Virus record (IMG/VR): IMGVR_UViG_3300025372_000639
Location: 1 to 64,000 of that record
DNA: 64,000 nt
DNA from: a virus
Taxonomy: Duplodnaviria; Caudoviricetes
Direction: 5' to 3' (one strand)
The notes under the pieces are model-generated. The model was not told where the DNA came from and ran no database searches. It saw only the letters and a list, made by a program, of their open reading frames with translations. The translations under genes were made by a program, and so were the position numbers. This document shows, piece by piece, positions 17,640 to 36,371 of this stretch. Within the stretch, counting starts at the first letter, position 1; every line of letters begins with the position of its first letter.

Positions 17640-17682
17640 AGAATAATATTTATATGCGTACATAACTCCTATAAATATCTTA

Positions 17683-20590: not shown

Positions 20591-21035
20591 TGTCTTTTAA
20601 TTTCAAGACATAGTCGCTACAGATAGCATAACATTCGACATCTTTAATTTTATCAAATTCAGGATCATTCCATTCGGGCATGACCATAATACCGAACTTT
20701 CCAACTTCTTTATCTGGATATGTCCAAATAAAACCTTTGCTAGTTAATGTATAGTCATCTGTGTTATGCCAAAAATAGTTTAACTTAATATCATTTTGAC
20801 AATACTCTAATGCAGGTAGATGTTTACAATGTATCCATAGCCCGGGTTTCTTAATAAATTCTTCAGTAACGTGATACTGCGGACCGTCATGTCCTAAGTA
20901 TAACCTATCTTCAAACACCCATAAATCTACTTCACAATCAAATCCTTGCTCCATTGCAGAAATAATGGTAGCGGGACGATTTTCTATTTGTTTATTAGGA
21001 CCTTTAGTTAGCCCACGGTGTGCAATTAGTTTCAT
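20565..21035 (-). CDS. glycerophosphodiester phosphodiesterase-like protein
   Basis: IAHRG...EN...EVD...GHD. Confidence 0.7.
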   Translation of the reverse strand: MKLIAHRGLTKGPNKQIENRPATIISAMEQGFDCEVDLWVFEDRLYLGHDGPQYHVTEEFIKKPGLWIHCKHLPALEYCQNDIKLNYFWHNTDDYTLTSKGFIWTYPDKEVGKFGIMVMPEWNDPEFDKIKDVECYAICSDYVLKLKDIMPIDQNR

Positions 21036-22402
21036 TCTTTATAGTGATTTAAAAAATATTCTAAGTCTTCGGGTGTACCTATGCCCCACATCTTAGGAAT
21101 CTGTTTGATTTTAATTTTCTTACCATCGCCTATTGCTTCGTTAAACACAGGACAAACATAGAACTCGTTATTGGTACGAATGTCTTTTTCAATCATTTGT
21201 TCCGCATACTTAACATAGTCGCTACCTTTCTTCCAGAAGTAGATACCTACCGTAGCATCATCACTGATAGGATTCTTTTCTGCAACTTCTGCAACAAATC
21301 CATCATTGCCTACACGGGCAAATGACCATTTAGGATGCGTGGCTTTAAATGTTACAATGCCGCCATCGACTTCATCTGCTGTGAATCCGTATAAACATTC
21401 GTTTGAATTCCATTCAACGAATTGATCGCTGTTAGCCATTAGTAAAGGTTCATCGCTATTAATAAGTTCTTTAGCAAGCAATGTTGTACGAGCAGCACCG
21501 TCAGTGATACCATCTACTTGTACAATGTCACATCCCGGAGCGATAAGGTTTAGTAATTGTTTTAGGTTATATTTTTCGTAGTGTTCTTTTTGTACAAGGA
21601 AAATATAGTGTGCTTCTACATTTAAGTTTTCAACAACAACCTGAATCATAGGTTTGCCGTTAACTTCAATCAAAGGCTTAGGAAATGTATAGCCTGCTTG
21701 AGCAAATCTGCTGCCAGCGCCTGCCATAGGAATTAGTACATTCATCTTATTGTTTCTCCAGGGGATTTTTTTAGTGCTTACACCGTTAAGAATGTCAACG
21801 GCTTCTTGAATTTTATCTTTGGTAAGGTCATAACTATCACGTACAGGTACTAAGTGAGCACCACTATCTATAGCACCTTGACGGCCAATGTGGCTATCTT
21901 CGATAATTACCGTGGTCTTAGGTAATGCGTTCATAGCAATCATGCACTTCCAATACATCTCGGGGTAAGGTTTAGTCCTGCTAACATCTTCATTAGAAAC
22001 AAAATAGTCAACAAACTCTAACACACCTATGCTCAAGAGGGCTAGTTTAATAGTTTCTCTAACACTATTACTGGCTACAGCAATCTTAATTCCCTGACTA
22101 TTCAATTCAGCAAACATTTGGCGTAGGTGATTGTTTCTAGGAAATTCTTTGATCAGTTTGAATGTAGCCTTTTGTTTATCTTCCCATACTTGATTAAAAA
22201 ATTTACGATCTAATCCTTTACGTTCGGACAGCATTTCTAATTTGCGTGTGGTACTTAATCCATCATATGTGCTAAGATGTTCTTCTTTTGAGATAACAAA
22301 CTGAGGACTAACTCTAGACAATGCGGCATTGAGCGCCTCGTAGTGTAGTTCTCTACTTTCTATCAGTACTCCATCAAGATCGAATATAATTAACTTATTC
22401 AT
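21032..22402 (-). CDS. HAD phosphatase / sugar nucleotidyltransferase fusion
   Basis: FDLDGVL, KPYP and IEDS (HAD); IPMAGAGSRF..PKPLI and GTPED (NTP transferase). Confidence 0.9.
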   Translation of the reverse strand: MNKLIIFDLDGVLIESRELHYEALNAALSRVSPQFVISKEEHLSTYDGLSTTRKLEMLSERKGLDRKFFNQVWEDKQKATFKLIKEFPRNNHLRQMFAELNSQGIKIAVASNSVRETIKLALLSIGVLEFVDYFVSNEDVSRTKPYPEMYWKCMIAMNALPKTTVIIEDSHIGRQGAIDSGAHLVPVRDSYDLTKDKIQEAVDILNGVSTKKIPWRNNKMNVLIPMAGAGSRFAQAGYTFPKPLIEVNGKPMIQVVVENLNVEAHYIFLVQKEHYEKYNLKQLLNLIAPGCDIVQVDGITDGAARTTLLAKELINSDEPLLMANSDQFVEWNSNECLYGFTADEVDGGIVTFKATHPKWSFARVGNDGFVAEVAEKNPISDDATVGIYFWKKGSDYVKYAEQMIEKDIRTNNEFYVCPVFNEAIGDGKKIKIKQIPKMWGIGTPEDLEYFLNHYKE

Positions 22403-24480: not shown

Positions 24481-25328
24481 TATACTCCGTCCTCTCTATA
24501 TAAGTCTGTTACATGGAATACTGCTCCAGGAGCAATTAGGTGTTGATATTTGTCTAAGTTGTCTGTGATACACTTAGGAAAGTACTCGTCAACTACTACG
24601 ATATCAAATCGTTCTTCGTGTCCGGGGCCGTGATGACCATATTTGTTTTCAACCATCCACTCGATATTGTGTCGATCGATTAGATCCTTGCGATCTGATT
24701 CTGTATGAGCAAAGTTTTGTAGTTTAACAATAGCATTAGCATCGTCACCGAAGTAGGTAAAATGCCAGCCACCGTGTTCAATGTATGCTGTGTTAGGATG
24801 ATCAGGAACCCAAGGGAATGTAAATTCACGCTCTTGTTGTGCGTTAGTAAAAGCACGACCCCTAGTAAGCATGATGTTTGGTTGTTTACTACGCTCAATA
24901 TATTTCATGTTATTGATCTTATATTGGAACATAGGAATTGTTAGCACATACTTGTCGTAATCATTCTCATCTGTTTTGATCATGTCCACAACTTCTGCTC
25001 GGGGAATCTCGTCTAAGTCCGAAACAATAATAATGTCATCGGGCTGCCGATCTTCTAATCCTCGACCTAGGCTATATCGTTGAAACTTTTCACGAACCCA
25101 ACTATCTCGAGTTTCGGGCATATCATCAACTTGGATGCGTACAATTTTATCTGCGTAAGGTTTAAATCTATCCCAATTGTCTAATAAAATATAGTCCTTG
25201 GGTTTACCGCTGTGACTAAGATTAGATTCGGCAATGACAAAATGGTCAGTGACATCCCACATTTCTTGTAAGCGGATTTCTAATACATCTAATTCGTTAA
25301 AGAATGTAAAGCAATCGTATGTTTTCAT
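24480..25328 (-). CDS. glycosyltransferase family 17
   Basis: YDCFTFFNELDVLEIRL, SDLDEIP, GGWHFTY. Confidence 0.88.
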   Translation of the reverse strand: MKTYDCFTFFNELDVLEIRLQEMWDVTDHFVIAESNLSHSGKPKDYILLDNWDRFKPYADKIVRIQVDDMPETRDSWVREKFQRYSLGRGLEDRQPDDIIIVSDLDEIPRAEVVDMIKTDENDYDKYVLTIPMFQYKINNMKYIERSKQPNIMLTRGRAFTNAQQEREFTFPWVPDHPNTAYIEHGGWHFTYFGDDANAIVKLQNFAHTESDRKDLIDRHNIEWMVENKYGHHGPGHEERFDIVVVDEYFPKCITDNLDKYQHLIAPGAVFHVTDLYREDGV

Positions 25329-26770
25329 TTAGTATCTTGTATATATTGTTGGTATTGTTGTGCCAACTGCACACGGGTTTCGTTTGGTAATCCTGGCCAA
25401 TGTATAACAAAGTCACCTGGATACCATTGTCCGTCTTGACCTAGCAAGTCGATCCCTTCTACATTATACATTCTGTAGTCATAGGAATTCAACCATTGCT
25501 GAGGAATAATTTTAAACAGGTCTTGGAATTTAGGATAGAAGTCAATAACGGCTTGTTGTTCAAACCATTTCTTATCATTCTTGTATTCTAGTTTCTTGCT
25601 TAGTAAAAAGTTCAACCATTCACGAGCCTGTGCGCTGTTGCGTACAATAAAACTGCCTGTGTTCAAGGCCGCAATGTCTGTTGGCATGATCACATGATAG
25701 TCATTGTCTACTAAGTCTTCAACTTTGATATCAAAGTTAGTGATCATTGCATCGTTGTCTAACCACCAAACCCAATCCACTGAAGTATTCTTTTCCATTA
25801 CATCAAGGATGTGTACAAACTTGTCAAAGTGAACTTGCTCTGGGCTAAAGTTATCTGTTTTTGAGAGTGCCAGGTAGCCGTGTTTTTCTGCGTATTTGAC
25901 CTTGTTGTTGTACCAAGTTAGATCAGCAAGGTCCTTATGTCGATCATTGAAGATACTGACAATGGCCATGTTTGGTTTGTTGCTGTCTTTCCACAACTGC
26001 GGTACGCTGTTCCACAGCTCATCAATGTCAATGTAGGGGTCCTTGCCGCTTTCGTCCATGATGTGAAATGCTAGACCAGGGATAGGACTGAACAGGGCAA
26101 CATCTTCTTTGTTCCAAACAAGATTGATACTCTTGTTTTCAACATAGTCCACTTTTTGCTCTGTTAGAGTAACAACATCTTGGAAATGATTTTTATATCT
26201 TGTGTAAAGAGCCTTACTGGCAAAACAAGTATAGGTAGTATGTTTAACCGTTCTGTAATGTCTATAAGGCCCGTGTAATAGGAAACTTGGATAAATTTCA
26301 TACTTATATCGCCAAACATCGTCATGAGGGTTTATAGCAACATACTTTCCGGTCTTGCTTTCAAACTCATCAAAAGTATCAATCATATCGTGGATTGCCT
26401 CTGGGTAATGCAGGTAATCATCTTCTATATGATACCACAAGTCGGTTGCCTTGGCTTCAACTTGCTCGAAGACTTTCTTCATAGTATAAGCATTACCTGT
26501 ACCGCCGTCTACCGGTATAAACGTTGTTGGGAATTTACAATGTGCTAAAATGTTTTTAATATCTGCTACGCAGGTAGCATCACTATGGTCATCCAATACT
26601 ATTAGTTCAACGTCATGCCCTTGTACATGATTGATACTTTCAACAAGACTGCTAACGCACACATTTACTAATTGTGATTTTGGTACTTTGACATATCGAC
26701 CGGCTCCGTTATCGTTGAGCATATTGACACGAGTGCATGTTCTTAGTACAATTAATAAATTTCTTTTCAT
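25325..26770 (-). CDS. two-domain glycosyltransferase (GT2-like + GT34-like)
   Basis: LDDHS and IEDDYLH in the N half; WWLDND, LNTGSF, EQ and HWPG in the C half. Confidence 0.8.
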   Translation of the reverse strand: MKRNLLIVLRTCTRVNMLNDNGAGRYVKVPKSQLVNVCVSSLVESINHVQGHDVELIVLDDHSDATCVADIKNILAHCKFPTTFIPVDGGTGNAYTMKKVFEQVEAKATDLWYHIEDDYLHYPEAIHDMIDTFDEFESKTGKYVAINPHDDVWRYKYEIYPSFLLHGPYRHYRTVKHTTYTCFASKALYTRYKNHFQDVVTLTEQKVDYVENKSINLVWNKEDVALFSPIPGLAFHIMDESGKDPYIDIDELWNSVPQLWKDSNKPNMAIVSIFNDRHKDLADLTWYNNKVKYAEKHGYLALSKTDNFSPEQVHFDKFVHILDVMEKNTSVDWVWWLDNDAMITNFDIKVEDLVDNDYHVIMPTDIAALNTGSFIVRNSAQAREWLNFLLSKKLEYKNDKKWFEQQAVIDFYPKFQDLFKIIPQQWLNSYDYRMYNVEGIDLLGQDGQWYPGDFVIHWPGLPNETRVQLAQQYQQYIQDTK

Positions 26771-26828: not shown

Positions 26829-27590
26829 ATGAGTGATGTAACCTTCTTTTTAACCAGTTGCAAGCGACACGACTTGCTTAAAGTATGCTTAGAGACTTTT
26901 GTCCAACATAATACATACCCAATTGAACATGGAATTATTGTAGAAGACAGCGACATGGACTTAGAGTGGGTCCGTGAAATTCTTCCGTTTGCCAAGTTAG
27001 ATCTTATCAATACAGCAGGGCGCCAGGGGCAACTAAAGAACATCGATACTTACTATCCGTTGATCAAAACACCATATGTTTTCCATTGCGAGGACGATTT
27101 TGTGTTTATCCGTGATAGTTTCATTGAGCCTAGTAAGAAAATTTTAGAAGCAGACGATTGTTGTATCAATGTTTGGCTAACAGAATATGAAACTGAGTGG
27201 GAGGCTACCAGTCAGGATCCTACAAATTTAACCAATCATGCCCGCATACTTCCTCCTTATCATAGACAATTTACGCTAGATGACATTACATTTTGGAATG
27301 TAAACAACGTCATGCACCAAGAATGGGCATTGGGATTTACCTTTCAACCCAGTTTGCATCGGATGGAAGACTGGTCTCGCTACGGAGGATACGAAGCAAT
27401 TATAGATCATGTTGCTCCTTGGTGCAATAAAATGGACGGAGCACAAGTTGAACGAAACTTGTGTAGACATTACATCATGGACGGGTTCCATACATTCATG
27501 TTGGCTGGCCCAAACGACAAACAAGACGGATACGTAAACACTACAGGTCATCAACGCCATGTAGAAATTGTAAACAAAGGTACTAACTAA
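26829..27590 (+). CDS. GT2-like glycosyltransferase
   Basis: LTSCKR, IIVEDS, FHCEDDF. Confidence 0.75.
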   Translation: MSDVTFFLTSCKRHDLLKVCLETFVQHNTYPIEHGIIVEDSDMDLEWVREILPFAKLDLINTAGRQGQLKNIDTYYPLIKTPYVFHCEDDFVFIRDSFIEPSKKILEADDCCINVWLTEYETEWEATSQDPTNLTNHARILPPYHRQFTLDDITFWNVNNVMHQEWALGFTFQPSLHRMEDWSRYGGYEAIIDHVAPWCNKMDGAQVERNLCRHYIMDGFHTFMLAGPNDKQDGYVNTTGHQRHVEIVNKGTN

Positions 27591-27618
27591 TGTGGCAAAA
27601 AAGCCACATTATCAGGGG

Positions 27619-27647
27619 TTGACAAGAGAGATAAATAAATATACAAT
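27619..27647 (+). promoter_or_regulatory. sigma70 promoter P1 of the tRNA array
   Basis: TTGACA-17-TACAAT; TAAATA in the spacer. Confidence 0.85.
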
Positions 27648-27707
27648 AGATACTTAGTTAAGAGGTTCGGCGTTAACAACTTATTTTGCCAAAATTGCAA
27701 ATAGGGG

Positions 27708-27736
27708 TTGACAAGAGAACTAAATAACTATACAAT
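27708..27736 (+). promoter_or_regulatory. sigma70 promoter P2 of the tRNA array
   Basis: TTGACA-17-TACAAT; TAAATA in the spacer. Confidence 0.85.
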
Positions 27737-27795
27737 AGAGTCATAGGTAGTTTAGTGTTAGCAAAAACTATTTTGCAAAAAAATGCAAATAGGGG

Positions 27796-27824
27796 TTGAC
27801 ACAAAGACTAAATATGTGTATAAT
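27796..27824 (+). promoter_or_regulatory. sigma70 promoter P3 of the tRNA array
   Basis: TTGACA-17-TATAAT; TAAATA in the spacer. Confidence 0.88.
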
Positions 27825-27884
27825 TAACACATAGACAGCAATGGTGCTGTTTATGTAAACAAAAGATTTTAAAGAGAAAACAAA

Positions 27885-28043
27885 ATGCAATCGTTTAACA
27901 GACATCAACAATTTAATACGATAGCCAAACAGGTAGGCGTGATGCCCTCTTGCTGGTTAGCGATTAATAGTCTGTCATATGATCGCACACCAGAGGGGAT
28001 TACCCCGGGGTCCATAGGAGGCGAGAAGATTCCCAGAATCTAA
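27885..28043 (+). CDS. putative attenuator leader peptide (52 aa, all 20 amino acids)
   Basis: MQSFNRHQQFNTIAKQVGVMPSCWLAINSLSYDRTPEGITPGSIGGEKIPRI; its stop codon lies inside the antiterminator hairpin. Confidence 0.65.
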   Translation: MQSFNRHQQFNTIAKQVGVMPSCWLAINSLSYDRTPEGITPGSIGGEKIPRI

Positions 28044-28067
28044 TCGCAAACAACTCCAAAGGACCCC
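28007..28067 (+). promoter_or_regulatory. putative antiterminator hairpin
   Basis: nested pairings GGGGTCC/GGACCCC, GGAG/CTCC, GCGA/TCGC, GATTC/GAATC. Confidence 0.65.
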
Positions 28068-28097
28068 AGGATTAAAAACCCTGGGGTTTTTTGTTTT
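28062..28097 (+). terminator. intrinsic terminator (attenuator) upstream of the tRNA array
   Basis: ACCCCAGG/CCTGGGGT stem followed by TTTTTGTTTT. Confidence 0.85.
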
Positions 28098-28534
28098 CTA
28101 GATTGGAAACATGACAGAAACAGATAGTAAAAAATATAAACAGATTGAGTTTATAAAACAGCATACACTATCTCCAGATCAGTTTAAAACACTGATCGAG
28201 GAAAAGATAGAACGTGCTAGGTTGTACTCACAATCAGTTGGCAGAAAGCGAGAGACGGTCCTTCAACAAGACTATCGTTAGAATCGCAACTTGTGAATAG
28301 AGGAAACGAGGTCCTCGCTAGGCAAGTAAAACATCTAGCAAACGGGCGGCCTATCGGATGAAACTCCTTTTCTGGAGCGAAAAATGGTAGCGTATTAAAG
28401 TGTACTATAACCACTCCCCACTGAAGGGTAGAACGGCCGCGTAGCGTTAGTGCATTTTAATACACACATTCGGTCTGAGTACATAGTATAAAGAGGCAGA
28501 AAGATAAACTGCTAGAGTGTGTTGTAATAAATTT

Positions 28535-28621
28535 GGAGCCCTTTCCCGCTTGCGGTCTGTAAAATCGTAGCCATAACAAGGTGGGTGGTGGCAAGAGGTT
28601 CGATTCCTTAGGGCTCCACCA
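28535..28621 (+). tRNA. atypical tRNA-Tyr(GTA)-like, D-arm missing
   Basis: GGAGCCC/GGGCTCC-ACCA, loop CTGTAAA, TTCGATT T-loop. Confidence 0.6.
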
Positions 28622-28626
28622 AATTT

Positions 28627-28701
28627 GGTCTCGTCATATAGTGGTTATTATACCGGCCTGTCTAGTCGGATATCGGGGTTCGATTCCCCGCGGGATCGCC
28701 A
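28627..28701 (+). tRNA. tRNA-Asp(GTC)
   Basis: cloverleaf, loop CTGTCTA, GCCA end. Confidence 0.9.
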
Positions 28702-28705
28702 AACA

Positions 28706-28985
28706 TAAGATAGTCCTTATTGTTAGGACCGTAACGTCAAGGGAGTCGGGGCTAACCTTGTAAATCACGCCCGGCAGAAATACTAAGACAACACTTAGTA
28801 AGATGAGTAGACGGAAACCGACCCCTGCCGGAGCGCGGGGGCTTCAGCAGCATATGAGGTGGCTGACGATGCGAGAGTAAGTCGGTCCAGTAGGGGTAAG
28901 AAAAGTGTTGTTGGCGGCAAGAGCTGTTGAAGGACAGAAGCACAAATCCATAGAGGTGAAGATGTGCGCCGTGTATTCCTTCAAG
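28706..28985 (+). ncRNA. unidentified structured RNA
   Basis: GC-rich, hairpin-rich spacer between tRNAs; starts with a motif repeated at 30187. Confidence 0.4.
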
Positions 28986-28993
28986 AATTTTAT

Positions 28994-29069
28994 TCCATCT
29001 TCGTATTCTCGGTGAGTACCCCCGGCTGTTAACCGGAAGAGGTTGGTTCGAATCCAACAGATGGAGCCA
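28994..29069 (+). tRNA. tRNA-Asn(GTT)
   Basis: TCCATCT/AGATGGA, loop CTGTTAA, GCCA. Confidence 0.88.
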
Positions 29070-29143
29070 ATATTAAAACACGCTAACAGCGTCGTACCGG
29101 TCGCCGGACTTAGGTTGAATTCCTAATAGTGTGTTTTTATATT

Positions 29144-29218
29144 GGGGGCAGTAGTGGGCTACGGGTAACCCTTGCAAGGTTGCTGACTAGAAGGATTCGA
29201 TTTCCTCGGCCTCCACCA
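29144..29218 (+). tRNA. atypical tRNA-Ala(TGC)
   Basis: G3:U70, loop CTTGCAA, ACCA; short D-arm, irregular T-arm. Confidence 0.7.
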
Positions 29219-29376
29219 ATTTTCGGGATAGACGGTAGTTTAGAGTCCCACCCAACCTAGCATAGTGACTCAGCTATGTGACAGCAACAGGACGGTTAGG
29301 AGTGGTATTAGACTTGACTATTCGAGACAATCTAGCGAGTTCACCCAGGTGGATAGTTAGGCTCCCAACTTTTTAT

Positions 29377-29452
29377 CTCTCTAAAGTGTTATCTGGTTGC
29401 ATCCGCGGTTTGGGGCCGTGTGGTCCTGGTTCAAATCCAGGTAGGGAGACCA
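29377..29452 (+). tRNA. tRNA-Pro(TGG)
   Basis: cloverleaf, loop TTTGGGG, ACCA. Confidence 0.88.
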
Positions 29453-29458
29453 AGTTTT

Positions 29459-29521
29459 AGGTTGCGTTCAGCAAACATAATACATTTGACTTTTAATCAA
29501 AACCGTAAAAAAGCAACCTGT
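29459..29521 (+). ncRNA. CAGCAA-stem RNA 1 (Lys UUU anticodon stem-loop)
   Basis: AGGTTGC-GTTCAGCAA...TTTGA CTTTTAA TCAAA...GCAACCT-GT. Confidence 0.75.
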
Positions 29522-29529
29522 TATTTTAT

Positions 29530-29603
29530 TCCTCTATAGTTAAATGGTATAACAATCGGCTGATAACCGGTCATTACAAGTTCGATTCTTGTTGGAGGAA
29601 CCA
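29530..29603 (+). tRNA. tRNA-Ile(GAT)
   Basis: cloverleaf, loop CTGATAA, ACCA. Confidence 0.9.
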
Positions 29604-29608
29604 GTTTT

Positions 29609-29663
29609 AGGATACATTCAGCAAATTTAAATCTTTTTGGTATAAAGAAAAAAAGTATCCTGT
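29609..29663 (+). ncRNA. CAGCAA-stem RNA 2 (Thr GGU-like stem-loop)
   Basis: AGGATAC-ATTCAGCAA...TCTTT TTGGTAT AAAGA...GTATCCT-GT. Confidence 0.75.
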
Positions 29664-29671
29664 TTTATTGT

Positions 29672-29746
29672 TGGGGTGTAGTGTAATGGCTATCACAACG
29701 GGCTTTGAACTCGTTAATCTTGGTTCGATTCCAAGCACCCCTACCA
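29672..29746 (+). tRNA. tRNA-Gln(TTG)
   Basis: cloverleaf, loop CTTTGAA, ACCA. Confidence 0.9.
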
Positions 29747-29751
29747 GTTAT

Positions 29752-29827
29752 ATTGCGTTAGACTTCTGGGCTAGGTCAATAGGCTTTCAACCTATCTAGG
29801 CGGGTTCGATTCCCGTACGCAATACCA
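29752..29827 (+). tRNA. tRNA-Glu(TTC)
   Basis: cloverleaf, loop CTTTCAA, ACCA. Confidence 0.9.
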
Positions 29828-29835
29828 ATTTTAAT

Positions 29836-29927
29836 GCCAGCGAGACTTGGAAGTCAGAGAGTCCTTATAAGACTTTTAGCGCCAGATTAGCGTTCTTGAG
29901 AGGGTTCGATCCCCTCCGCTGGTACCA
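29836..29927 (+). tRNA. atypical tRNA with TAT anticodon (Ile) and long variable arm
   Basis: GCCAGCG/CGCTGGT-ACCA, GAGTC CTTATAA GACTT, T-arm GAGGG TTCGATC CCCTC. Confidence 0.7.
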
Positions 29928-29934
29928 ATATTAT

Positions 29935-30012
29935 GTACCGGTGGCAGAGAGGCCCAATGCAGTGGATTGCAAATCCGCAAAACCGTGAGTTCGAATCTCA
30001 CCCGGTATTCCA
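29935..30012 (+). tRNA. tRNA-Cys(GCA)
   Basis: loop TTGCAAA, U73 discriminator, CCA. Confidence 0.92.
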
Positions 30013-30020
30013 ATTTTAAT

Positions 30021-30098
30021 GCGTGGTTAGTGTTTAACGGTTTAGCATCACTGGCTTCCACCCAGTAGGAAAGAGTTCGAATCTCTTACCCCGCACCA
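30021..30098 (+). tRNA. tRNA-Gly(TCC)
   Basis: loop CTTCCAC, ACCA. Confidence 0.88.
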
Positions 30099-30105
30099 AT
30101 TCAAT

Positions 30106-30182
30106 GCGTGTGTAGTATAGCCAGGTAATTATTCTGGGTTGCCAACTCAGAGACTCGGGTTCGAATCCCGACACCCGCACCA
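30106..30182 (+). tRNA. tRNA-Gly(GCC)
   Basis: loop TTGCCAA, ACCA. Confidence 0.88.
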
Positions 30183-30282
30183 AATGTAAGATAGTTGCTA
30201 TCGCGTCCTGCAGGTAAGTTAGCAACCGTAACATCACGGACGGGCGTATATGCCGTGTAAGAAATGCGACTCAGAAATTTAT

Positions 30283-30356
30283 GCTTCGGTAGTTTAATGG
30301 CAGAACCTTGCTTTTACATAGCAAAGATGGGAGTTCGATTCTCCAACGAAGTACCA
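30283..30356 (+). tRNA. tRNA-Val(TAC)
   Basis: loop TTTACAT, ACCA. Confidence 0.85.
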
Positions 30357-30372
30357 GATAGAACATTTAGGT

Positions 30373-30443
30373 GTGGCCATAGTGTAATGGTAGCACTACA
30401 TGTTGTGACCTTGTCAGTACGGGTTCAAATCCCGTTGGTCACC
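30373..30443 (+). tRNA. tRNA-His(GTG), CCA not encoded
   Basis: GTGGCCA/TGGTCAC, C73, loop TTGTGAC. Confidence 0.8.
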
Positions 30444-30459
30444 CCTAAATGTTTTAATT

Positions 30460-30535
30460 GCCGCTTTAGCTGATGTGGTCATAGCACCGGTTTGAAGCAC
30501 CGAGGAACTAGGTTCGATCCCTAGAGGCGGCACCA
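30460..30535 (+). tRNA. tRNA-Phe(GAA)
   Basis: loop TTGAAGC, ACCA. Confidence 0.85.
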
Positions 30536-30543
30536 ATTTTTAT

Positions 30544-30620
30544 ATACCGGTAGTTCCAACTGGCAGAACATCAGTCTCCAAAATTGAGTGTTGGGGGTTC
30601 GAATCCCTCCCGGTATGCCA
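30544..30620 (+). tRNA. tRNA-Trp(CCA)
   Basis: loop CTCCAAA, GCCA. Confidence 0.9.
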
Positions 30621-30623
30621 AGT

Positions 30624-30819
30624 TTTGTAAGTGTTAGTAAGTGAAAATCACCGATTCGAGTAGCCGGCCAGCCAAAGAGTAGGTAAACAACGAGGGGCGC
30701 AATACCCTAGCACAAACATAGAAGCGTTGGATGAGTAACTGCAATGACGTACCGAGTCCTAGCCGGCTTTATATACATAGGTGAATGGTGCCAATAACGA
30801 TGGTGGCACAACTTACAAA
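30624..30819 (+). ncRNA. unidentified ~196-nt structured RNA
   Basis: closed by TTTGTAAGT/ACTTACAAA; fills the spacer between two tRNAs. Confidence 0.45.
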
Positions 30820-30827
30820 TTCAATAT

Positions 30828-30902
30828 GCCGTAGTAGTTCTCTGGGAGGGCAACGGATTGTCTATCCGACTCAGGCGAGTTCGATTCTCGTCTACGGCGC
30901 CA
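30828..30902 (+). tRNA. tRNA-Asp(GTC)
   Basis: loop TTGTCTA, GCCA. Confidence 0.85.
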
Positions 30903-30907
30903 GTTTT

Positions 30908-31008
30908 AGGATGATTACAGCAAACTTTTTTCTGCAGCCATATTTGCAGGCCGGCCCGCTTGGGGGCGTGTCGTGGGTTCGAGTCCCGGCTTAGACACAG
31001 CATCCTGT
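30908..31008 (+). ncRNA. CAGCAA-stem RNA 3 (contains a T-arm)
   Basis: AGGATG-ATTACAGCAA...GGG TTCGAGT CCC...CATCCT-GT. Confidence 0.75.
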
Positions 31009-31023
31009 TATTTTTGACCATTT

Positions 31024-31142
31024 AGGTTCTTTTCAGCAATCTTATTAAATCTTTCTGAAAAAAAGACGGACCGGGTTCGAATCCCGGGCACTGCTTGGTC
31101 AGCGGTGTTGGTGTAGTGGTAGCACAAAAAATGAGAACCTGT
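31024..31142 (+). ncRNA. CAGCAA-stem RNA 4, circularly permuted tRNA-Phe mimic (YrlA-like)
   Basis: AGGTTCT/AGAACCT stem enclosing anticodon arm, T arm, loop-closed acceptor stem and D arm. Confidence 0.82.
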
Positions 31143-31145
31143 TTT

Positions 31146-31220
31146 GCCCCTGTAGTATAATGGATAATACACCGGTCTACGAAATCGGGAATTGTGGTTC
31201 GATTCCATACAGGGGCGCCA
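31146..31220 (+). tRNA. tRNA-Arg(ACG)
   Basis: loop CTACGAA, GCCA. Confidence 0.92.
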
Positions 31221-31221
31221 G

Positions 31222-32193
31222 TTATAGTAAATCAATTTCACTGATTACGGTTTGGCCACCAAATGCTAAACTAGTTTTCAGCATTCTTTTATATGTAAAA
31301 GATGTAGGACTAGTAATAATTCTATCATCGTTTACTAGTTTATTACCTGATATGATGTTAGGTTTTAACACATTATCTTTTTTGCAGTCCAGTGCCATGC
31401 AAATTTCAACAGCACCGGATGCACTCATGCAGTGACCTACATAACCTTTGAAACCTACAATAGGTATATCGTGTTTGCAGGTCTCCTTAAAGAATGTATA
31501 CTCAAAGGTATCTCCAATTGGAGTGCCTGTTGCGTGTGCGTTCCATAGATCGATTTTATCATAGTCTATGTGACTGAATTGTTTAACAATGTTTTCTACA
31601 TCGCCTGGATGTGTAACAAGATCAGGCTGTGTGTAGAATGAAAAATTTTGTATGATTGCTTTTGCATCTAGCGGATATTTAACACTAGGATGTTTAACAA
31701 TCATTAAAGAAATACCTGTTCCCATTTTGAATCCTTGACTGGTAGAGTCAAATGGCAATCCTTTATCGGAATCAATAGCACCAATGCTATTAAACTGCCA
31801 CAGACGATATCCTAAATTAAAGTCATCGCCGCAAAATACCACAACAGGTGTTTGTGAATCTAAGCTCATCAATGTAGCTTGATATAATGCATACAATGAT
31901 CCTGCACATGCGGCACGAACGTTGAATGCTTGTTTTTGCAGTCCTAATTTTTGTCCTACCATTGATGTAAGGAAATTAGACAGAGCATTTTTAAATAAAC
32001 TAGGCTTGTTCCTAGCTTTTCCAGACAGATATCTTGCCCAGGAATCTTCCTCTCCCTGATATTCAACGGTAGACATTGAGGCTGTTACCAACGGCCAATT
32101 AGGTTTAACAATAGATTGAAATTGCGGATCAGAAAGAAAACTTTCTGGATTCCAAATTGTGTCGTACTTGTATTCGAGTATTTCGCATTGCAT
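31222..32193 (-). CDS. beta-ketoacyl synthase (FabB/FabF-like)
   Basis: AACAGSL (catalytic Cys), NAHATGTPIGD, KGYVGHCMSASG, SLAFGG. Confidence 0.88.
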   Translation of the reverse strand: MQCEILEYKYDTIWNPESFLSDPQFQSIVKPNWPLVTASMSTVEYQGEEDSWARYLSGKARNKPSLFKNALSNFLTSMVGQKLGLQKQAFNVRAACAGSLYALYQATLMSLDSQTPVVVFCGDDFNLGYRLWQFNSIGAIDSDKGLPFDSTSQGFKMGTGISLMIVKHPSVKYPLDAKAIIQNFSFYTQPDLVTHPGDVENIVKQFSHIDYDKIDLWNAHATGTPIGDTFEYTFFKETCKHDIPIVGFKGYVGHCMSASGAVEICMALDCKKDNVLKPNIISGNKLVNDDRIITSPTSFTYKRMLKTSLAFGGQTVISEIDLL

Positions 32194-32236
32194 AGGCAGA
32201 TATTTAATCCTGCGAATGACTGGTATAAATATTAAC

Positions 32237-32785
32237 ATGAAGAAGTATCATTCTAATTTAAAATTACCTGTACCGTTTGTACCTTTTGAAAAAGGATCTG
32301 ATCATTTTGATGAAGTTCCTATAACGGACGAGCATATGAGTCCGGAGTTCCTCAACTGGTTAGCAGGTATGGGATTAACTTTCCGTAAGGCAAGATTTTT
32401 TAACAGCATTCCGAATCAACAATATCGATTACATGTCGACGGAGACGTTGTAAAAGAATTAGTAAAATTAAACATAGTATTTGATAGTACAGATACAATT
32501 ATGAACTGGTACGAGCCCGTAGATGGTTATCAAGGTACACTTAAACCTAACGGCCTAGGTCAACCGGTATTGTATTATGATAAAGATAAATGTAATTTAT
32601 TACACAGCAAACCAGTGAATACACATTGTATCCTAGCTGGAAACATTGTACATGATCTAGTAAACGGTCCTAACAATGGACAAAGTCGAAAATGTTATTC
32701 GATGTTTTTAGTTCACAAGGCTACAGATACATTAGTGAAATGGGACGAAGCACTAGAGTTGTTTGGCCCACATCTAATCGATTAA
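32237..32785 (+). CDS. 2OG-Fe(II) oxygenase-like / cupin protein
   Basis: HVD...H...R pattern. Confidence 0.55.
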   Translation: MKKYHSNLKLPVPFVPFEKGSDHFDEVPITDEHMSPEFLNWLAGMGLTFRKARFFNSIPNQQYRLHVDGDVVKELVKLNIVFDSTDTIMNWYEPVDGYQGTLKPNGLGQPVLYYDKDKCNLLHSKPVNTHCILAGNIVHDLVNGPNNGQSRKCYSMFLVHKATDTLVKWDEALELFGPHLID

Positions 32786-32793
32786 TATTTCTT

Positions 32794-33411
32794 ATGAAGT
32801 ACACTATTATCGAAGATTGTAGTCCCTACTACATTAGATTTAAACACGAAGGTATTGAAGATCTTATAGAATACTTGCGTAACATTTATAGCACATCAAA
32901 ATTTGTTCAATCATTTACATGGAACAAATATTTTATGCATTGTAGATTAACACGCGAAGACGGTATACGGCTACTGGAAAAAATTCCAGTAGCCGATGAC
33001 ATGAACTTTTTAAAACAACGAGTTAGTTTCTTTGTAAGCAAACCAGGTCTATATTATAGAGCACACAAGGATGGTATAAATGATCAGTTTAGTATAAACT
33101 ATACTATTGATATTGCCGACGATAAGTGTGTTACAAGTTGGTATGATGATGCTGATTTAAAAGAGTACCAATCTTCTACCAATTCTGGCAATTCTAGAGA
33201 ATGTATCAACTTTGATAAAAGTAAACATGTCCCGTTAAAATCAATGATAGCAAAACAAGGTGAATGCATATTGTTTAATACTAACATATATCATGATTGG
33301 GATAATACACTTTCTTCAAATCAACGAGTAGTACTAACACTTCGTCACGAAACACCGGGACAGGTGACATTTGATGATGCTAAACAAATTTTATTCAGGT
33401 CCTTAGTTTAA
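32794..33411 (+). CDS. 2OG-Fe(II) oxygenase-like protein
   Basis: HKD...FNTNIYH...RVVLTLR. Confidence 0.6.
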   Translation: MKYTIIEDCSPYYIRFKHEGIEDLIEYLRNIYSTSKFVQSFTWNKYFMHCRLTREDGIRLLEKIPVADDMNFLKQRVSFFVSKPGLYYRAHKDGINDQFSINYTIDIADDKCVTSWYDDADLKEYQSSTNSGNSRECINFDKSKHVPLKSMIAKQGECILFNTNIYHDWDNTLSSNQRVVLTLRHETPGQVTFDDAKQILFRSLV

Positions 33412-33470
33412 TGGTAGAACACTACCTCGACACGGTGAAGACACAAGTTCAATTCTTGTAGGACCTACCA
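33397..33470 (+). tRNA. tRNA-Val(GAC)
   Basis: AGGTCCT/AGGACCT-ACCA, loop TCGACAC (C33); overlaps the stop of the upstream CDS. Confidence 0.8.
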
Positions 33471-33475
33471 ATTAT

Positions 33476-33550
33476 GCTCCTTTAATATAAAGGCTATTAT
33501 ACCGGTTTTGTAGTCCGGTTATTGCGGTTCGAGTCCGTGAGGGAGCACCA
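33476..33550 (+). tRNA. tRNA-Thr(TGT)
   Basis: loop TTTGTAG, ACCA. Confidence 0.8.
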
Positions 33551-33556
33551 AATTAT

Positions 33557-33647
33557 AGTGAGTTGGCAGAGCGGCGAATGCAGAAGTTTGCTAAACTTTA
33601 GGTTGACGGAAGTTGACCCGTGGGTTCGAGTCCCACACTCACTGCCA
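33557..33647 (+). tRNA. tRNA-Ser(GCT)
   Basis: loop TTGCTAA, long variable arm, GCCA. Confidence 0.88.
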
Positions 33648-33656
33648 AGAAAACGG

Positions 33657-33685
33657 TTGACAACTACCGCAAAAGGTTGTATAAT
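33657..33685 (+). promoter_or_regulatory. sigma70 promoter
   Basis: TTGACA-17-TATAAT. Confidence 0.85.
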
Positions 33686-33829
33686 AAACACATAAACAAA
33701 AAGGAAACGACATGAAACGTTCAGGTAAACGATAGTGTCAACCTTAGATCCCGTATTGGTCTAGGGTTGGCACATTAAAGATCTCTTTAACAAGAATTAA
33801 GACGTTAAAGAAACTTTTAATACAACTAA

Positions 33830-33905
33830 CCCTTTCTAGCGTTAATGGTAGCGCACTTGACTCTTAATCAATGAGGTGTCGGTTCGAATCCGACGGGAGG
33901 GACCA
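33830..33905 (+). tRNA. tRNA-Lys(CTT)
   Basis: loop CTCTTAA, ACCA. Confidence 0.9.
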
Positions 33906-33909
33906 ATAT

Positions 33910-33985
33910 GGGGCCATAGTTAAGCGGTTATAACATCACCCTTTTAAGGTGTAAGACCTCGGTTCGAATCCGAGTGGCCCTACCA
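33910..33985 (+). tRNA. tRNA-Lys(TTT)
   Basis: loop CTTTTAA, ACCA. Confidence 0.88.
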
Positions 33986-34046
33986 AAAGATGTTGTTTTA
34001 TATGGAACTTTGCTAAATAATAGTAATATTTTAATTAAGGTTCGAT

Positions 34047-34625
34047 ATGAAACAATGTCCTAAATGTAAAGCAGAGCACAATAATTCTGGAACGTTCTGT
34101 TCAAGAAGTTGTGCTAATAGCAGAGTATTTTCTGATGAGTCTAAATTTAAAAAGAGTATAGCACTCAAAGGTAGAAAGCCCACAGGCGTTATTGCAGACA
34201 AAGAAGCATGGGCAAGGAAGATAAAGGAAACGGCATTACAAAAATACTTAGCAAAGTCCTTTGATGAGTTAGGTATGGAAAATAAACGTCGAAGAGTATT
34301 TGAGGAACAGAAGTATTGTTGTAATAAGTGCGGCATAAGTGAATGGTTCACTAGGCCTATATCTTTAGAGTTAGAACATAAAGATGGGAATAACTTAAAC
34401 AATATAAGAGAAAATTTAGAAGGATTGTGCCCTAATTGTCATAGTATCACAGATACATGGCGAGGAAGAAACAAGCCTGCTAAAAATGGAATTAATCAAA
34501 TTAGTGATGAATCTTTGTTGCAATGTCTTAAAGAGTCTAAAAATATTAGACAGGGCTTGTTAAAGGCAGGTATAGCGGCAAAAGGTAAGAACTACGAGAG
34601 AGCAAAAAAATTATTAGGACGTTAA
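34047..34625 (+). CDS. HNH endonuclease
   Basis: FCSRSC zinc motif; LELEHKDGNNLNN..NLEGLCPNCH. Confidence 0.9.
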   Translation: MKQCPKCKAEHNNSGTFCSRSCANSRVFSDESKFKKSIALKGRKPTGVIADKEAWARKIKETALQKYLAKSFDELGMENKRRRVFEEQKYCCNKCGISEWFTRPISLELEHKDGNNLNNIRENLEGLCPNCHSITDTWRGRNKPAKNGINQISDESLLQCLKESKNIRQGLLKAGIAAKGKNYERAKKLLGR

Positions 34626-34732
34626 CGTCCTACCATATAAAAACACATTAGAGAGTGGGCTAGCGTATATTCTACCATAAGAACGGATATAGGTGACTTG
34701 GTTCAATTCCAAAGTCTAGTGTGTTTCTATAT

Positions 34733-34808
34733 GGTGATGTAGCATAGCGGCTAATGTACCTCCTTCATACGGAGATTATCGTCGGTTCGAGTCCGACCAT
34801 CACTACCA
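34733..34808 (+). tRNA. tRNA-Met(CAT) (elongator or Ile2)
   Basis: loop TTCATAC, ACCA. Confidence 0.85.
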
Positions 34809-34815
34809 AGAATAC

Positions 34816-34904
34816 GGAGGGTTAACTGGGCTGGGCCCAGCACGGTCTTGAAAACCGATGGTGTGCGAAAGCGCATAGAGTTCGATTCTACTAGCCCTCC
34901 TCCA
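34816..34904 (+). tRNA. tRNA-Ser(TGA)
   Basis: loop CTTGAAA, variable arm GTGC GAAA GCGC, CCA. Confidence 0.82.
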
Positions 34905-34911
34905 AGTTAAT

Positions 34912-35004
34912 GGGGAATACTTCCGCTTGGTTGCGGAGGCATTCTGTTTAGAATGTGTACAGCAAAACATCAAACAATTGGTTCGACTCCAATATTCCCC
35001 GCCA
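34912..35004 (+). ncRNA. CCA-ended tRNA-like RNA with a permuted CAGCAA module replacing the anticodon arm
   Basis: GGGGAAT/ATTCCCC-GCCA, T-arm, GCATTCT gttt AGAATGT-GTACAGCAA. Confidence 0.78.
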
Positions 35005-35010
35005 CAATTT

Positions 35011-35131
35011 GCCGCTGTCGTCTAATGGTAGGACACCTTATAAAAGGGTGACTCTGTATAGAGTACGTTCAGCAATTTTCTTAATCCATGCCAAGGGGGT
35101 TATCTAGGTTCGAATCCTAGCGGCGGCACCA
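35011..35131 (+). ncRNA. CCA-ended tRNA-like RNA with a permuted CAGCAA module
   Basis: GCCGCTG/CGGCGGC-ACCA, D and T arms, ACTCT gtat AGAGT-ACGTTCAGCAA. Confidence 0.78.
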
Positions 35132-35307
35132 ATTTATAAGTTGTTAATGAAGCGTAGTGCTTTATTGACATTAGTGAAATAACGTATCATAAATTCTTGA
35201 TCATAGATATCTTGAATCATAACACAGCACACACCTTCATACAAAGACAGATGAAAGTGAAGTCCGTTTGGTGTTAAACTATCATACGTTCTCACAAAAA
35301 TATTTAT

Positions 35308-35384
35308 GCCCCGTTACGCTAATTGGTAGTGCGGATTCTCTCAAAAGGAGTTGGTTGTAGGTTCGAATCTTACACGGGGTACCA
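35308..35384 (+). tRNA. tRNA-Leu(CAA) lacking a long variable arm
   Basis: loop CTCAAAA, ACCA, short variable loop. Confidence 0.78.
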
Positions 35385-35391
35385 AACATTT

Positions 35392-35467
35392 GCCCGCGAA
35401 GTATTAGTCGGTGGTACACCGCCCTCGTAACGCGGAAGATTCAGTTCGAGGCTGAACGTGGGCACCA
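35392..35467 (+). tRNA. tRNA-Thr(CGT)
   Basis: loop CTCGTAA, ACCA. Confidence 0.8.
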
Positions 35468-35509
35468 AAAAATGCCAAGTTATCGTAAATATATTTGATA
35501 AATAGAATT

Positions 35510-36154
35510 ATGCAATATTGGATATTTGGACATACAGGTTCGGGATACATAGAAATATCAAACCTCATAGAACATGCGGATAATGTTTATCCAGCTGACG
35601 GTCAGAAGCTTTGGAAAAATGTAGATCGAAATTTTAAGAAAAGACAGATAGGATGGATGCCTCCGAGATGGGTTAACATTTACGGTCTATTTGAAGCACC
35701 TCAACCTGACTTTGACCCTTCAGATTATATATTGAACCCTGTCTATCTTAAATTATTAGAAGAAGGGAAAAATACGGTTATACCTGCACATTATCGTCAG
35801 TACTTAAATTATATTGATCTTGTTCCATTTAAAGACACAATAACCAAAGACATGCATAAAATCTTTGTGTCTTCGAGTGATAAGCAAAGAATGATAAACG
35901 ATATAGCAGTCAATCATCCTAACTTAACGGATCAAGATAAAATCAAAGCCCAAGCAGAGATTATAGATTATAATCCACTAACCATGCAATATTTTAAACC
36001 AGAAGGTGGATACGATACCATCATCGAATTAGAAAGAGTGTGGGAAGACTGGAACTATTTGAATAACATTCTAACTGCAATTGGCATCAATCTTCAGAAA
36101 AAATTCTACGATACTTACATGGAAAAGTCTAATGCCATGCGTTCCAGGTCTTGA
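35510..36154 (+). CDS. hypothetical protein
   Basis: long ORF with TAAATA upstream. Confidence 0.6.
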   Translation: MQYWIFGHTGSGYIEISNLIEHADNVYPADGQKLWKNVDRNFKKRQIGWMPPRWVNIYGLFEAPQPDFDPSDYILNPVYLKLLEEGKNTVIPAHYRQYLNYIDLVPFKDTITKDMHKIFVSSSDKQRMINDIAVNHPNLTDQDKIKAQAEIIDYNPLTMQYFKPEGGYDTIIELERVWEDWNYLNNILTAIGINLQKKFYDTYMEKSNAMRSRS

Positions 36155-36190
36155 CATTATAGCAAAAATCTGCTAAACTTATAAAATAAT

Positions 36191-36265
36191 CTGGCGTTAG
36201 TATAATGGATAATACAATGAGCTTCTACCTCATGAATGTGGGTTCGATTCCTGCACGCCGGGCCA
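36191..36265 (+). tRNA. tRNA-Arg(TCT)
   Basis: ATGAG CTTCTAC CTCAT, GCCA. Confidence 0.9.
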
Positions 36266-36272
36266 TACATTA

Positions 36273-36349
36273 CGGTCATTAGCTCAACTGGATAGAGTCC
36301 CGGTCTTCGAAACCGGTTGTTGCAGGTTCGAGTCCTGTGTGGCCGGCCA
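36273..36349 (+). tRNA. tRNA-Arg(TCG)
   Basis: CCGGT CTTCGAA ACCGG, GCCA. Confidence 0.92.
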
Positions 36350-36371
36350 CTGCACTCTGTTAAATAACTTC

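Follow-up and report, generated by a model that had tools for sequence, protein, structure and literature searches.

Why phages carry large sets of tRNA genes, and when these tRNAs are used, is an old open question, and a conserved regulatory switch in front of such a set makes it testable. The locus studied here raises this question through a short open reading frame (ORF) of 52 codons, located at positions 27885-28043 of the viral record IMGVR_UViG_3300025372_000639 (Duplodnaviria; Caudoviricetes) of the IMG/VR database, upstream of a long array of tRNA genes. Because CheckV rates this 128,309-base viral record as 31% complete, it represents a fragment of a very large phage; the stretch analysed (hereafter the window) is its first 64 kb, with a GC content of 38%. 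An initial reading of the window (hereafter the original prediction) had described the ORF as a "pan-codon" leader peptide attenuator placed before the tRNA array. Comparison with homologous loci revealed that the ORF, the competing helices at its end, their geometry and the downstream tRNA array are conserved, and the substitution patterns indicate that no ordinary protein-level constraint acts on the leader peptide. The element is probably a ribosome-mediated transcription attenuator, in which translating the leader ORF would test all 20 amino acids and thereby gauge the supply of every aminoacyl-tRNA. From this architecture we infer that the leader is translated, in which direction the switch works, and that it responds to shortage of tRNAs or amino acids or to anticodon nucleases.

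After the repeats and promoters, the elements follow one another in the order 5' stem-loop, Shine-Dalgarno (SD)-like motif, leader ORF, hairpin, terminator, ORF2, non-coding block and tRNAs. They are located as follows (MFE, minimum free energy):

27586-27834 (+): three direct repeats with one sigma-70-type promoter each, the copies spaced 89 and 88 bp
27619-27647 (+): promoter 1, span from -35 to -10, 11 of 12 consensus matches
27708-27736 (+): promoter 2, span from -35 to -10, 11 of 12 consensus matches
27796-27824 (+): promoter 3, span from -35 to -10, 12 of 12 consensus matches
27832-27853 (+): 5'-terminal stem-loop of the transcript from promoter 3, helix at alignment columns 21-38
27872-27877 (+): weak SD-like AAGAGA, 7 nt before the ATG, from direct reading of the sequence
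27885-28043 (+): leader ORF, 52 codons plus TAA, with all 20 amino acids
28007-28067 (+): putative antiterminator hairpin, from the MFE fold and conservation in 65 sequences
28064-28097 (+): intrinsic terminator, stem 28064-70/28080-86 and the run TTTTTTGTTTT
28111-28281 (+): small ORF2 of 56 amino acids, conserved, starting 14 nt past the T-rich run of the terminator
28300-28400 (+): conserved structured RNA motif between ORF2 and the first tRNA
28534-54130 (+): tRNA array, a tRNA-Tyr-like gene and, after it, the 40 ARAGORN tRNA genes

Amino-acid content of the leader ORF and its homologs

What had been stated originally about the content of the ORF holds literally: the full set of 20 amino acids is complete at codon 37, and the 52 codons include 39 distinct sense codons, with the GC-ending TCG, ACG, GCG, CCG and CGC among them. 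Taken alone, the codon and residue counts of this ORF are barely more than chance would give. The probability of finding at least 39 distinct codons was 0.07 under uniform codon usage and 0.05 with the base composition of the ORF itself, and that of finding all 20 amino acids in a single ORF was 0.05-0.07. Among the other ATG ORFs of 45-60 amino acids present in the window, 4 of 46 likewise hold all 20 amino acids; when 52-codon segments of long ORFs were analysed (n = 1074), none reached 39 codons and 54 held all 20 amino acids, so that the ORF stands out only with respect to real genes of this phage. On its own the feature is weak (probability of about 0.05-0.07), and it gains significance only through the homologs of the leader.

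Homologous loci were collected from IMG/VR. A neighbouring protein led to one locus (L002) and a scan with a 17-mer of the promoter led to 24 loci, in ten of which the leader was recovered by blastn at 68-76% identity (one of them cut by a contig end). The ORF of the first nine leaders (that of the window plus eight loci, two identical) has 43-52 codons, and all 20 amino acids are present in 9/9. A further scan with a leader-derived 15-mer provided at least 120 stretches, and the leader peptide was detected by tblastn in 74 of 142 viral loci. Once a locus ended by a contig edge (L110) had been dropped, 65 distinct peptides and 65 distinct leader DNAs were available. At the protein level, a profile search gave 284 protein clusters (E<=0.01), none of them with a Pfam domain and with the source label "hypothetical", and an exhaustive HMMER search of the 50%-identity cluster representatives gave 156 matches (E<=1e-3). 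The length and coverage filters were passed by 128 of the 146 new 50%-identity representatives, and 18 of 266 proteins were dropped. These 128 representatives have a median length of 47 amino acids and a median pairwise identity of 40%.

In the peptide of the window the conserved positions are W24 (27954-27956) and D33-R-T-P-E37 (27981-27995). W24, D33, R34 and P36 are invariant in the 65 peptides and M1 is also conserved; no other block of the protein sets is as conserved as D-R-T-P-E. Neither Pfam nor PHROG contains a family for the leader peptide. DNA searches of the GenBank phage records with the leader and its neighbour genes gave no match (records near the window may have been excluded), and searches of the GenBank phage proteins with two leader peptides gave nothing or two chance matches (E = 2 and E = 6); a cultured relative was not found among the GenBank phage records. 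When cellular genomes were scanned with a DNA pattern, none of the matches listed (at least 120 loci) encoded the peptide (tblastn E<=1e-2), which is not evidence of absence.

All 20 amino acids are present in 61 of the 65 distinct DNA-derived peptides; the other four contain 19 kinds, and none contains 18 or fewer. Of the 120 listed 90%-identity cluster representatives, 91 are complete, 27 contain 19 kinds and two contain 18 or fewer. The corresponding numbers are 94, 31 and 3 for the 128 50%-identity representatives, and 244, 61 and 5 for the 310 pooled unique peptides. The shortest complete cases are two peptides of just 41 amino acids with all 20.

These counts were compared with several null models. 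Versus 94 complete peptides observed among the 128 representatives, the pooled composition of the family predicted 6.1 ± 2.5, the composition of the genes of the window 5.6 ± 2.3, and shuffling of the residues within each alignment column 26.8 ± 4.2 (maximum 40 in 1000 shuffles). For the 65 DNA-derived peptides, evolution of independent sites was simulated on the DNA tree, using per-column residue frequencies and a fitted rate. This model predicted 18.5 ± 7.9 complete peptides, and 21.0 ± 7.6 when the root was required to contain all 20 amino acids, versus 61 observed; a value of 61 was reached in 0 of 400 simulations under either root condition. The missing losses are concentrated in rare residues. 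In the 128 representatives, Cys is absent from 17 (43.5 expected), His from 2 (30 expected), Tyr from 1 (19.9 expected), Phe from 4 (21.5 expected) and Lys from 2 (8.8 expected).

Retention of these residues is accompanied by changes in their position. Cys is present exactly once in 93 of the 128 representatives and His exactly once in 95. An alignment-free count was made in 306 peptides, each divided into four zones anchored on W and D-R. Cys was found in exactly one zone in 235 peptides (N-terminal zone in 93, before W in 67, between W and DR in 67 and tail in 8) and was absent from 45, and Tyr was absent from a single peptide. Among the 22 peptides without an N-terminal His, 18 carry His elsewhere, compared with 13 of the 284 peptides that have it at the N-terminus. 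On the tree, the minimum number of zone-pattern changes was 19 (Cys), 18 (Tyr), 22 (Phe) and 21 (Lys). These four residues and His thus shift position and are only rarely lost.

Completeness is specific to the reading frame of the leader, since all 20 amino acids were found in only 0, 0, 2, 0 and 3 of the 65 sequences when the other five frames were translated. The tail of the peptide, with the exception of the boundary Glu, is the sole source of no residue in 52 of the 65 leaders. The set is thus mostly encoded 5' of the hairpin: of 306 peptides, 181 have all 20 amino acids already within the prefix that ends with DRTPE (median, 38 residues), and 273 have 19 or more there. Most residues are present in one to three copies, and there is no run of any codon, so that the cluster of cognate codons typical of attenuators is lacking. 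Altogether, these comparisons indicate that the presence of every amino acid in the leader is maintained by selection.

The original prediction had expected conserved codon diversity despite peptide divergence. This was confirmed for the amino acids (all 20 in 61/65 and 94/128), but not for the codons. The 65 leaders contain a mean of 36.0 distinct codons, vs 32.7 expected from the codon usage of the window (mean z of 1.66), and the excess falls to a z of only 0.55 when compared with uniform synonymous choice. Codon-level completeness was consequently rejected as a separate claim, and the term "pan-codon" is supported only as far as near-uniform synonymous usage goes. The GC content at third codon positions (GC3) is higher in the leaders (0.44 vs 0.30), as is the share of codons that are rare in long ORFs (22% vs 7%); RNA stems could be the source of this excess of GC3 and rare codons.

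One further question is whether the peptide itself or its synthesis is the target of selection. All 65 sequences keep the leader frame open and share its ATG without variation; the remaining five frames contain, on average, 1.1-4.4 stops. The ORF ends with TAA in 72 of the 74 loci and with TAG in two. The entropy of the leader is flat over the three codon positions (0.86, 0.78 and 0.87), and its ratio of nonsynonymous to synonymous polymorphism (pN/pS) is 0.81-0.85. As control, ORF2 at the same loci gave a pN/pS of 0.38-0.42 and entropies of 1.17, 1.00 and 1.41, position 3 being the highest. Because the frame is open in all 65 sequences and yet pN/pS is about 0.8, vs 0.4 in ORF2, the act of translation appears to be under selection rather than a folded product. 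In addition, a conserved GGGTYC located 3' of DRTPE is read as G-S/G-F in 25 sequences and as R-V/G-V in 40; because it is read in two frames, it is the nucleotides and not the residues that are kept in this region. Neither of the two marks of a folded small protein, purifying selection on residues and a recognisable family, was found in the leader.

Competing hairpins at the end of the leader ORF

In the MFE fold the RNA adopts the long hairpin 28007-28067 (outer helix GGGGUCC/GGACCCC) and not the terminator, and the stop codon of the ORF lies within this hairpin, as had been predicted. Three paired regions were distinguished: P1 (28007-13/28061-67), P2 (28017-20/28054-57) and the apical P3 (28021-24/28044-47 plus 28027-32/28036-41), the last of which contains the stop codon (28041-43). 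The z-score of the fold was -3.5 for region 27990-28105 and -6.8 for the whole leader. The terminator consists of a 7-bp GC-rich stem (28064-28070/28080-28086) followed by six U residues (28087-28092). Since the CCCC at 28064-28067 is common to both, hairpin and terminator are mutually exclusive, in agreement with the overlap of the GGACCCC arm and the terminator described originally. The ORF, the stop codon within the hairpin and the overlap between antiterminator and terminator are kept in 65/65 homologous leaders, a comparison that had been proposed as a check of the original prediction.

Conservation of both structures was analysed in the 65 sequences. P1 is paired in 99.8% of the cells of the alignment; its outermost pair is AU in 37 sequences, GC in 26 and GU in 2, and one inner pair shows a complete CG to UA change. 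The terminator stem is paired in 100% of the cells, and the RNAalifold consensus concurs. Pair 28067/28083 of this stem is UG in 30 sequences, CG in 26 and UA in 9. When the three positions 28007/28067/28083 were considered together, the combinations A,T,G (28 sequences), G,C,G (26), A,T,A (9) and G,T,G (2) were found, and A-C was never observed. Nucleotide 28067 therefore covaries with its partners in both helices and fits both of them in every sequence, with at least 11 changes of pair state on the tree. The sequence of the apical hairpin varies among homologs, yet it pairs and encloses the stop codon in 65/65.

The hairpin has a mean length of 58 nt and a mean energy of -24.3 kcal/mol, and the terminator alone a mean of -11.2 kcal/mol (65 sequences). 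When the two exclusive states were compared with their full flanks, the mean difference was -0.3 kcal/mol, which makes them near isoenergetic; without pairing of the U-tract, the hairpin exceeded the terminator state in stability by 4.5 kcal/mol in 64/65 sequences. Regarding the geometry, the 5' arm of the hairpin begins 15-34 nt upstream of the stop codon; downstream of the stop codon, the 3' arm begins at 20-41 nt and the end of the T-run is reached at 52-66 nt. With its trailing edge at -18, a ribosome placed at the stop codon would overlap the 5' arm in 57/65 sequences, and the 3' arm lies within +15 in 0/65.

Other pairings were also considered. The fold of the ORF body given by the MFE structure of the window was only partly conserved, and a 4-bp GAUC/GGUC pairing proposed by RNAalifold was invariant and too weak to count. 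A possible helix formed by CCA/UGG and GGC/GCC is invariant, and hence uninformative on the existence of a pause (1:2) helix.

The locus therefore combines a short ORF between promoter and genes, an intrinsic terminator, an antiterminator that shares nucleotides with it, and an ORF end that overlaps the switch, which are four structural features expected of an attenuator. The mechanism that we propose is the following. The transcript would be initiated at the strong tandem promoters, and the hairpin 28007-28067 would fold first and hide GGACCCC from the terminator stem, so that read-through would be the default. An untranslated or slowly translated leader would be read through, since the hairpin precedes the 3' arm of the terminator and is more stable. 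A ribosome that keeps up with the polymerase would decode about 37 codons, open the hairpin and halt at the stop codon in its apex. There it would hold or crowd the 5' arm and leave the 3' arm free, so that the terminator (28064-28086) and its U-tract could form and transcription would stop. If any aminoacyl-tRNA were short, the ribosome would be delayed 5' of the hairpin, the hairpin would persist and the polymerase would continue into ORF2, the structured RNA and the tRNA array. Host tRNA cleavage or decay, and starvation, are possible causes of such a failure in decoding. In its most general form, the proposal is that giant freshwater phages possess a "universal aminoacyl-tRNA gauge", with a test ORF of about 38 codons, through which a failure to decode any one amino acid would induce ORF2, the structured RNA and the nearly complete tRNA set of the phage; this wider version is put forward with some hesitation, as a possibility that may well prove too broad.

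The tRNA array and other features of the window

The tRNA array announced by the original prediction does follow the element, although not immediately, since ORF2 (28111-28281) and the structured RNA (about 28300-28400) intervene. Ten of the 74 loci were excluded from the tRNA count because their downstream sequence was too short. In the remaining 64 loci, which have at least 1200 nt of downstream sequence, same-strand tRNAs were found after the leader in 64/64, with at least three tRNAs in 63, and no opposite-strand tRNA was found downstream of the leader. The distance from the stop codon to the first tRNA has a median of 508 nt (range 277-1030), and this first tRNA is tRNA-Tyr in 22 loci. 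In the window, the 40 tRNA genes called by ARAGORN are all on the plus strand, from 28627 to 54130. Additional tRNA-like genes without an ARAGORN call were detected with Rfam models at 28534-28618, 34816-34900, 34912-35000 and 35011-35128. The first of them scored 30.5 bits on the tRNA-Sec model, which is sub-threshold, and reads as a long-arm tRNA-Tyr with GTA anticodon and a short D arm; the second scored 50.2 bits on the same model (cut-off 47).

Of the 64 loci, 53 have an ATG ORF of at least 30 amino acids no more than 80 nt from the terminator, and ORF2 itself was detected by tblastn (E<=1e-3) in 36 of the 64. Its motif is HTLT.EQ..KLI..K.ERA, no Pfam or PHROG family was found for it, and its pN/pS of about 0.4 indicates that it is under purifying selection. 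The structured RNA (window positions 28282-28410, about 120 nt) forms four helices, in which 16 of the 17 consensus pairs show compensatory changes among 33 distinct homologs. The block is present in at least 40 loci and contains the invariant stretches AACGAG, AAACGGGCGG, GGATG, AAAAAT and CGTATTAAAG; an Rfam search of region 27000-37000 at E<=1 gave no match for it. Near the arrays of some relatives, ARAGORN called permuted tmRNA-like genes (L088, 7247-7678, minus strand; L061, 5905-6292; L089, 5451-5889; L070, 307-783; L067, 12326-12885) with tags such as ANDEQFALAA and ANDEQFVLAA, and none was called in the window.

Upstream of the leader, the three promoters reported originally were recognised as sigma-70-type promoters with 11/12, 11/12 and 12/12 matches, and two to three promoters of this kind are found per homologous locus. 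The 5' stem-loop shows many compensatory pair types (GC, AU, UA and CG), and the AAAGAGAAA block in the SD-like region is kept in most homologs. In seven of the 65 aligned loci (L048, L058, L062, L067, L089, L096 and L132) the ATG is separated from the -10 box by about 10 nt, so that the mRNA would be near-leaderless and would lack the 5' stem-loop. A subgroup formed by L048, L058, L062, L067, L132 and L139 has the leader within the array, directly 3' of tRNA-Met and tRNA-Leu(taa).

A second copy of the element was not found in the 128-kb record. Another perfect promoter (12/12) is located within the tRNA array of the window, at 33657-33685, with a 7-codon ORF behind it (MKRSGKR, 33713-33736); no leader-like ORF or switch was found behind this promoter. 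The window also contains accessory genes that are atypical for a phage. They encode a CHASE2-adenylate/guanylate cyclase, four radical-SAM proteins (one of them B12-binding) and a DUF2828/DUF7788 protein, and these six genes are located at 11700-13763, 13884-15341 (-), 16179-17711 (-), 37131-38588, 42368-43552 (-) and 59963-61354. Further accessory genes encode a HAD hydrolase (21032-22402, -) and a GT34-type glycosyltransferase (25325-26770, -).

Alternative explanations and comparison with known systems

The same architecture could belong to a ribosome-dependent attenuator that senses overall translation capacity, or the coupling of transcription and translation, with completeness as a secondary trait; host shut-off, ribosome-targeting toxins or ribosome shortage would be examples of its triggers. 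That each residue is present about once, so that one slow codon might delay the ribosome little, and that about one fifth of the members lack one residue would agree with this explanation. Since it accounts neither for the relocation with retention of the rare residues nor for the frame specificity of completeness, we consider it unlikely. If the ORF were instead an ordinary early small-protein gene with its own terminator, the hairpin would act as a 3'-end stabiliser or as a site of processing, overlapping the terminator only incidentally. Gene callers do predict the ORF and the sources label it as a hypothetical protein, M1, W24, D33, R34 and P36 are conserved, and strong promoters followed by a terminator make up a complete transcription unit. 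However, the pN/pS of about 0.8 and the flat entropy (vs 0.4 for ORF2), the C-terminal part read in two frames and the lack of a Pfam or PHROG family do not correspond to such a gene, an isoenergetic competitor hairpin would weaken a plain terminator, and neither the completeness of the peptide nor the fact that the element always heads a tRNA array would be expected. A small-protein gene is hence quite unlikely.

The invariance of W24, D33, R34 and P36 in 65 peptides also brings to mind a nascent-peptide arrest leader, in which ribosomes would be arrested by W-x(8-13)-D-R-T-P-E at the base of the hairpin when some ligand or state is present, in the manner of TnaC or SecM, and this stall rather than codon supply would set read-through. 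With the Pro in the P site, the front edge of the ribosome would lie 9-20 nt before P1. Nevertheless, W and P are between 9 and 14 residues apart depending on the homolog, the invariance of TGG and GGC can be explained as well by the possible CCA/UGG plus GGC/GCC helix, that of DRTPE derives in part from the sampling of the loci, and completeness is left without explanation; arrest is very unlikely to be the basis of the switch. Finally, the whole leader folds well (z = -6.8), its codon-position entropy is flat and, in the MFE structure of the terminated RNA, the U-tract is paired with the 5' end, as might be seen in a non-coding structured RNA (a small RNA or a nuclease processing site) with an incidental ORF. 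This is scarcely credible for a frame that is open in 65/65 despite about 40-60% peptide divergence and indels, with stop-rich alternative frames, an invariant ATG, all 20 amino acids in the leader frame only and a poorly conserved structure in the ORF body.

Several observations weigh against the interpretation of the element as an attenuator that gauges every aminoacyl-tRNA. At the peptide level, one or more residues, in most cases Cys, are missing from 66 of the 310 unique peptides, and the phages with the Cys-less leaders of L044 and L061 do have a tRNA-Cys. In these two loci, a residue missing from the leader thus does not correspond to a tRNA missing from the phage; arrays were incomplete in the loci studied. 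The strong conservation of W24 and DRTPE is not accounted for if any residue will do, and, as 55 of the 65 DNA loci were obtained through a pattern inside DRTPE, the invariance of this block at the DNA level is partly due to ascertainment. At the RNA level, exchange of whole hairpin modules may inflate the covariation of P1 with respect to independent compensations. When the nucleotides from -15 to +14 around the stop codon were masked as occupied by a ribosome, P1 was still possible and slightly favoured (-17.4 vs -16.1 kcal/mol). Such masking in a simple energy model is thus not enough to flip the switch and, because it leaves P1 favoured, the effect of the ribosome would have to rest on sterics and timing, outside the energy model. 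For the leader of the window itself, the distance between the 5' arm and the stop codon is 28-34 nt, beyond the footprint of a terminating ribosome, and the SD-like sequence is weak. No convincing pause or anti-antiterminator (1:2) hairpin was found in the leader, the fold of the ORF body being paired in 72% with weak covariation. Regarding expression, metatranscriptome runs labelled freshwater, lake water and wastewater gave word shares of 0.05-0.06, and four RNA runs contained contigs of relatives, 85-99% alike, over parts of the leader, terminator, structured RNA and tRNAs; being contigs only, possibly derived from library DNA, they cannot give RNA ends, strand or level.

Work on phage tRNA sets as countermeasures to the loss of host tRNAs offers a motive for phages to carry their own when those of the host are cleaved or depleted (PMC10264068, PMC11555353, PMC12409363). 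The titles and opening parts of the abstracts of these articles deal with the tRNAs themselves and name no sensor or attenuator placed before a tRNA array. More generally, in the titles and abstract openings of the literature, with subscription journals largely outside, neither an all-amino-acid leader nor an attenuator before phage tRNA genes was found. An attenuator of the kind proposed predicts that phage tRNAs are induced upon decoding failure instead of being constitutive. If this is true, it would be the first known sensor to cover the entire decoding repertoire simultaneously, and the array the first regulated phage tRNA regulon. The family would also constitute a natural experiment, in which selection acts on the mere presence of each residue while the sequence of the peptide, some 40 residues long, can otherwise drift almost freely. 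As a short, self-contained element formed by promoters, leader and switch, it could be used to report general decoding stress.

The general translation-stress leaders, such as the erm, cat and bmrCD/vmlR-type leaders and the toiL leader of E. coli, resemble the element in that a small upstream ORF reports disturbed elongation and induces the downstream genes. They differ from it in that they respond to ribosome-bound drugs, often through specific nascent peptides or Rho, and are not known to show amino-acid completeness or to control tRNA genes. The T-box riboswitch also chooses between terminator and antiterminator according to tRNA charging; unlike the element described here, it binds one specific uncharged tRNA directly and does not need translation, and the T-box Rfam model gave no match in region 27000-37000 at E<=1. 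The closest parallel may be drawn with the leaders of the amino-acid operons (trp, his, phe, thr, ilv and leu), which contain runs of codons for the amino acid or amino acids made by the operon. With the trp/his-type attenuators the element shares a short leader ORF and a terminator whose 5' arm has an alternative upstream partner; it would also share their logic, in which the position of the ribosome selects the fold and slow translation leads to read-through. In contrast to them, the leader studied here is phage-encoded and has about one codon for each of the 20 amino acids, and the genes behind it comprise a tRNA array, a small ORF and a structured RNA and not biosynthetic enzymes. Furthermore, as no 1:2 pause or anti-antiterminator helix was found, an untranslated leader would here result in read-through and not in termination. 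An attenuator of this type would widen the concept of attenuation from "one operon, one amino acid" to one sensor for twenty.

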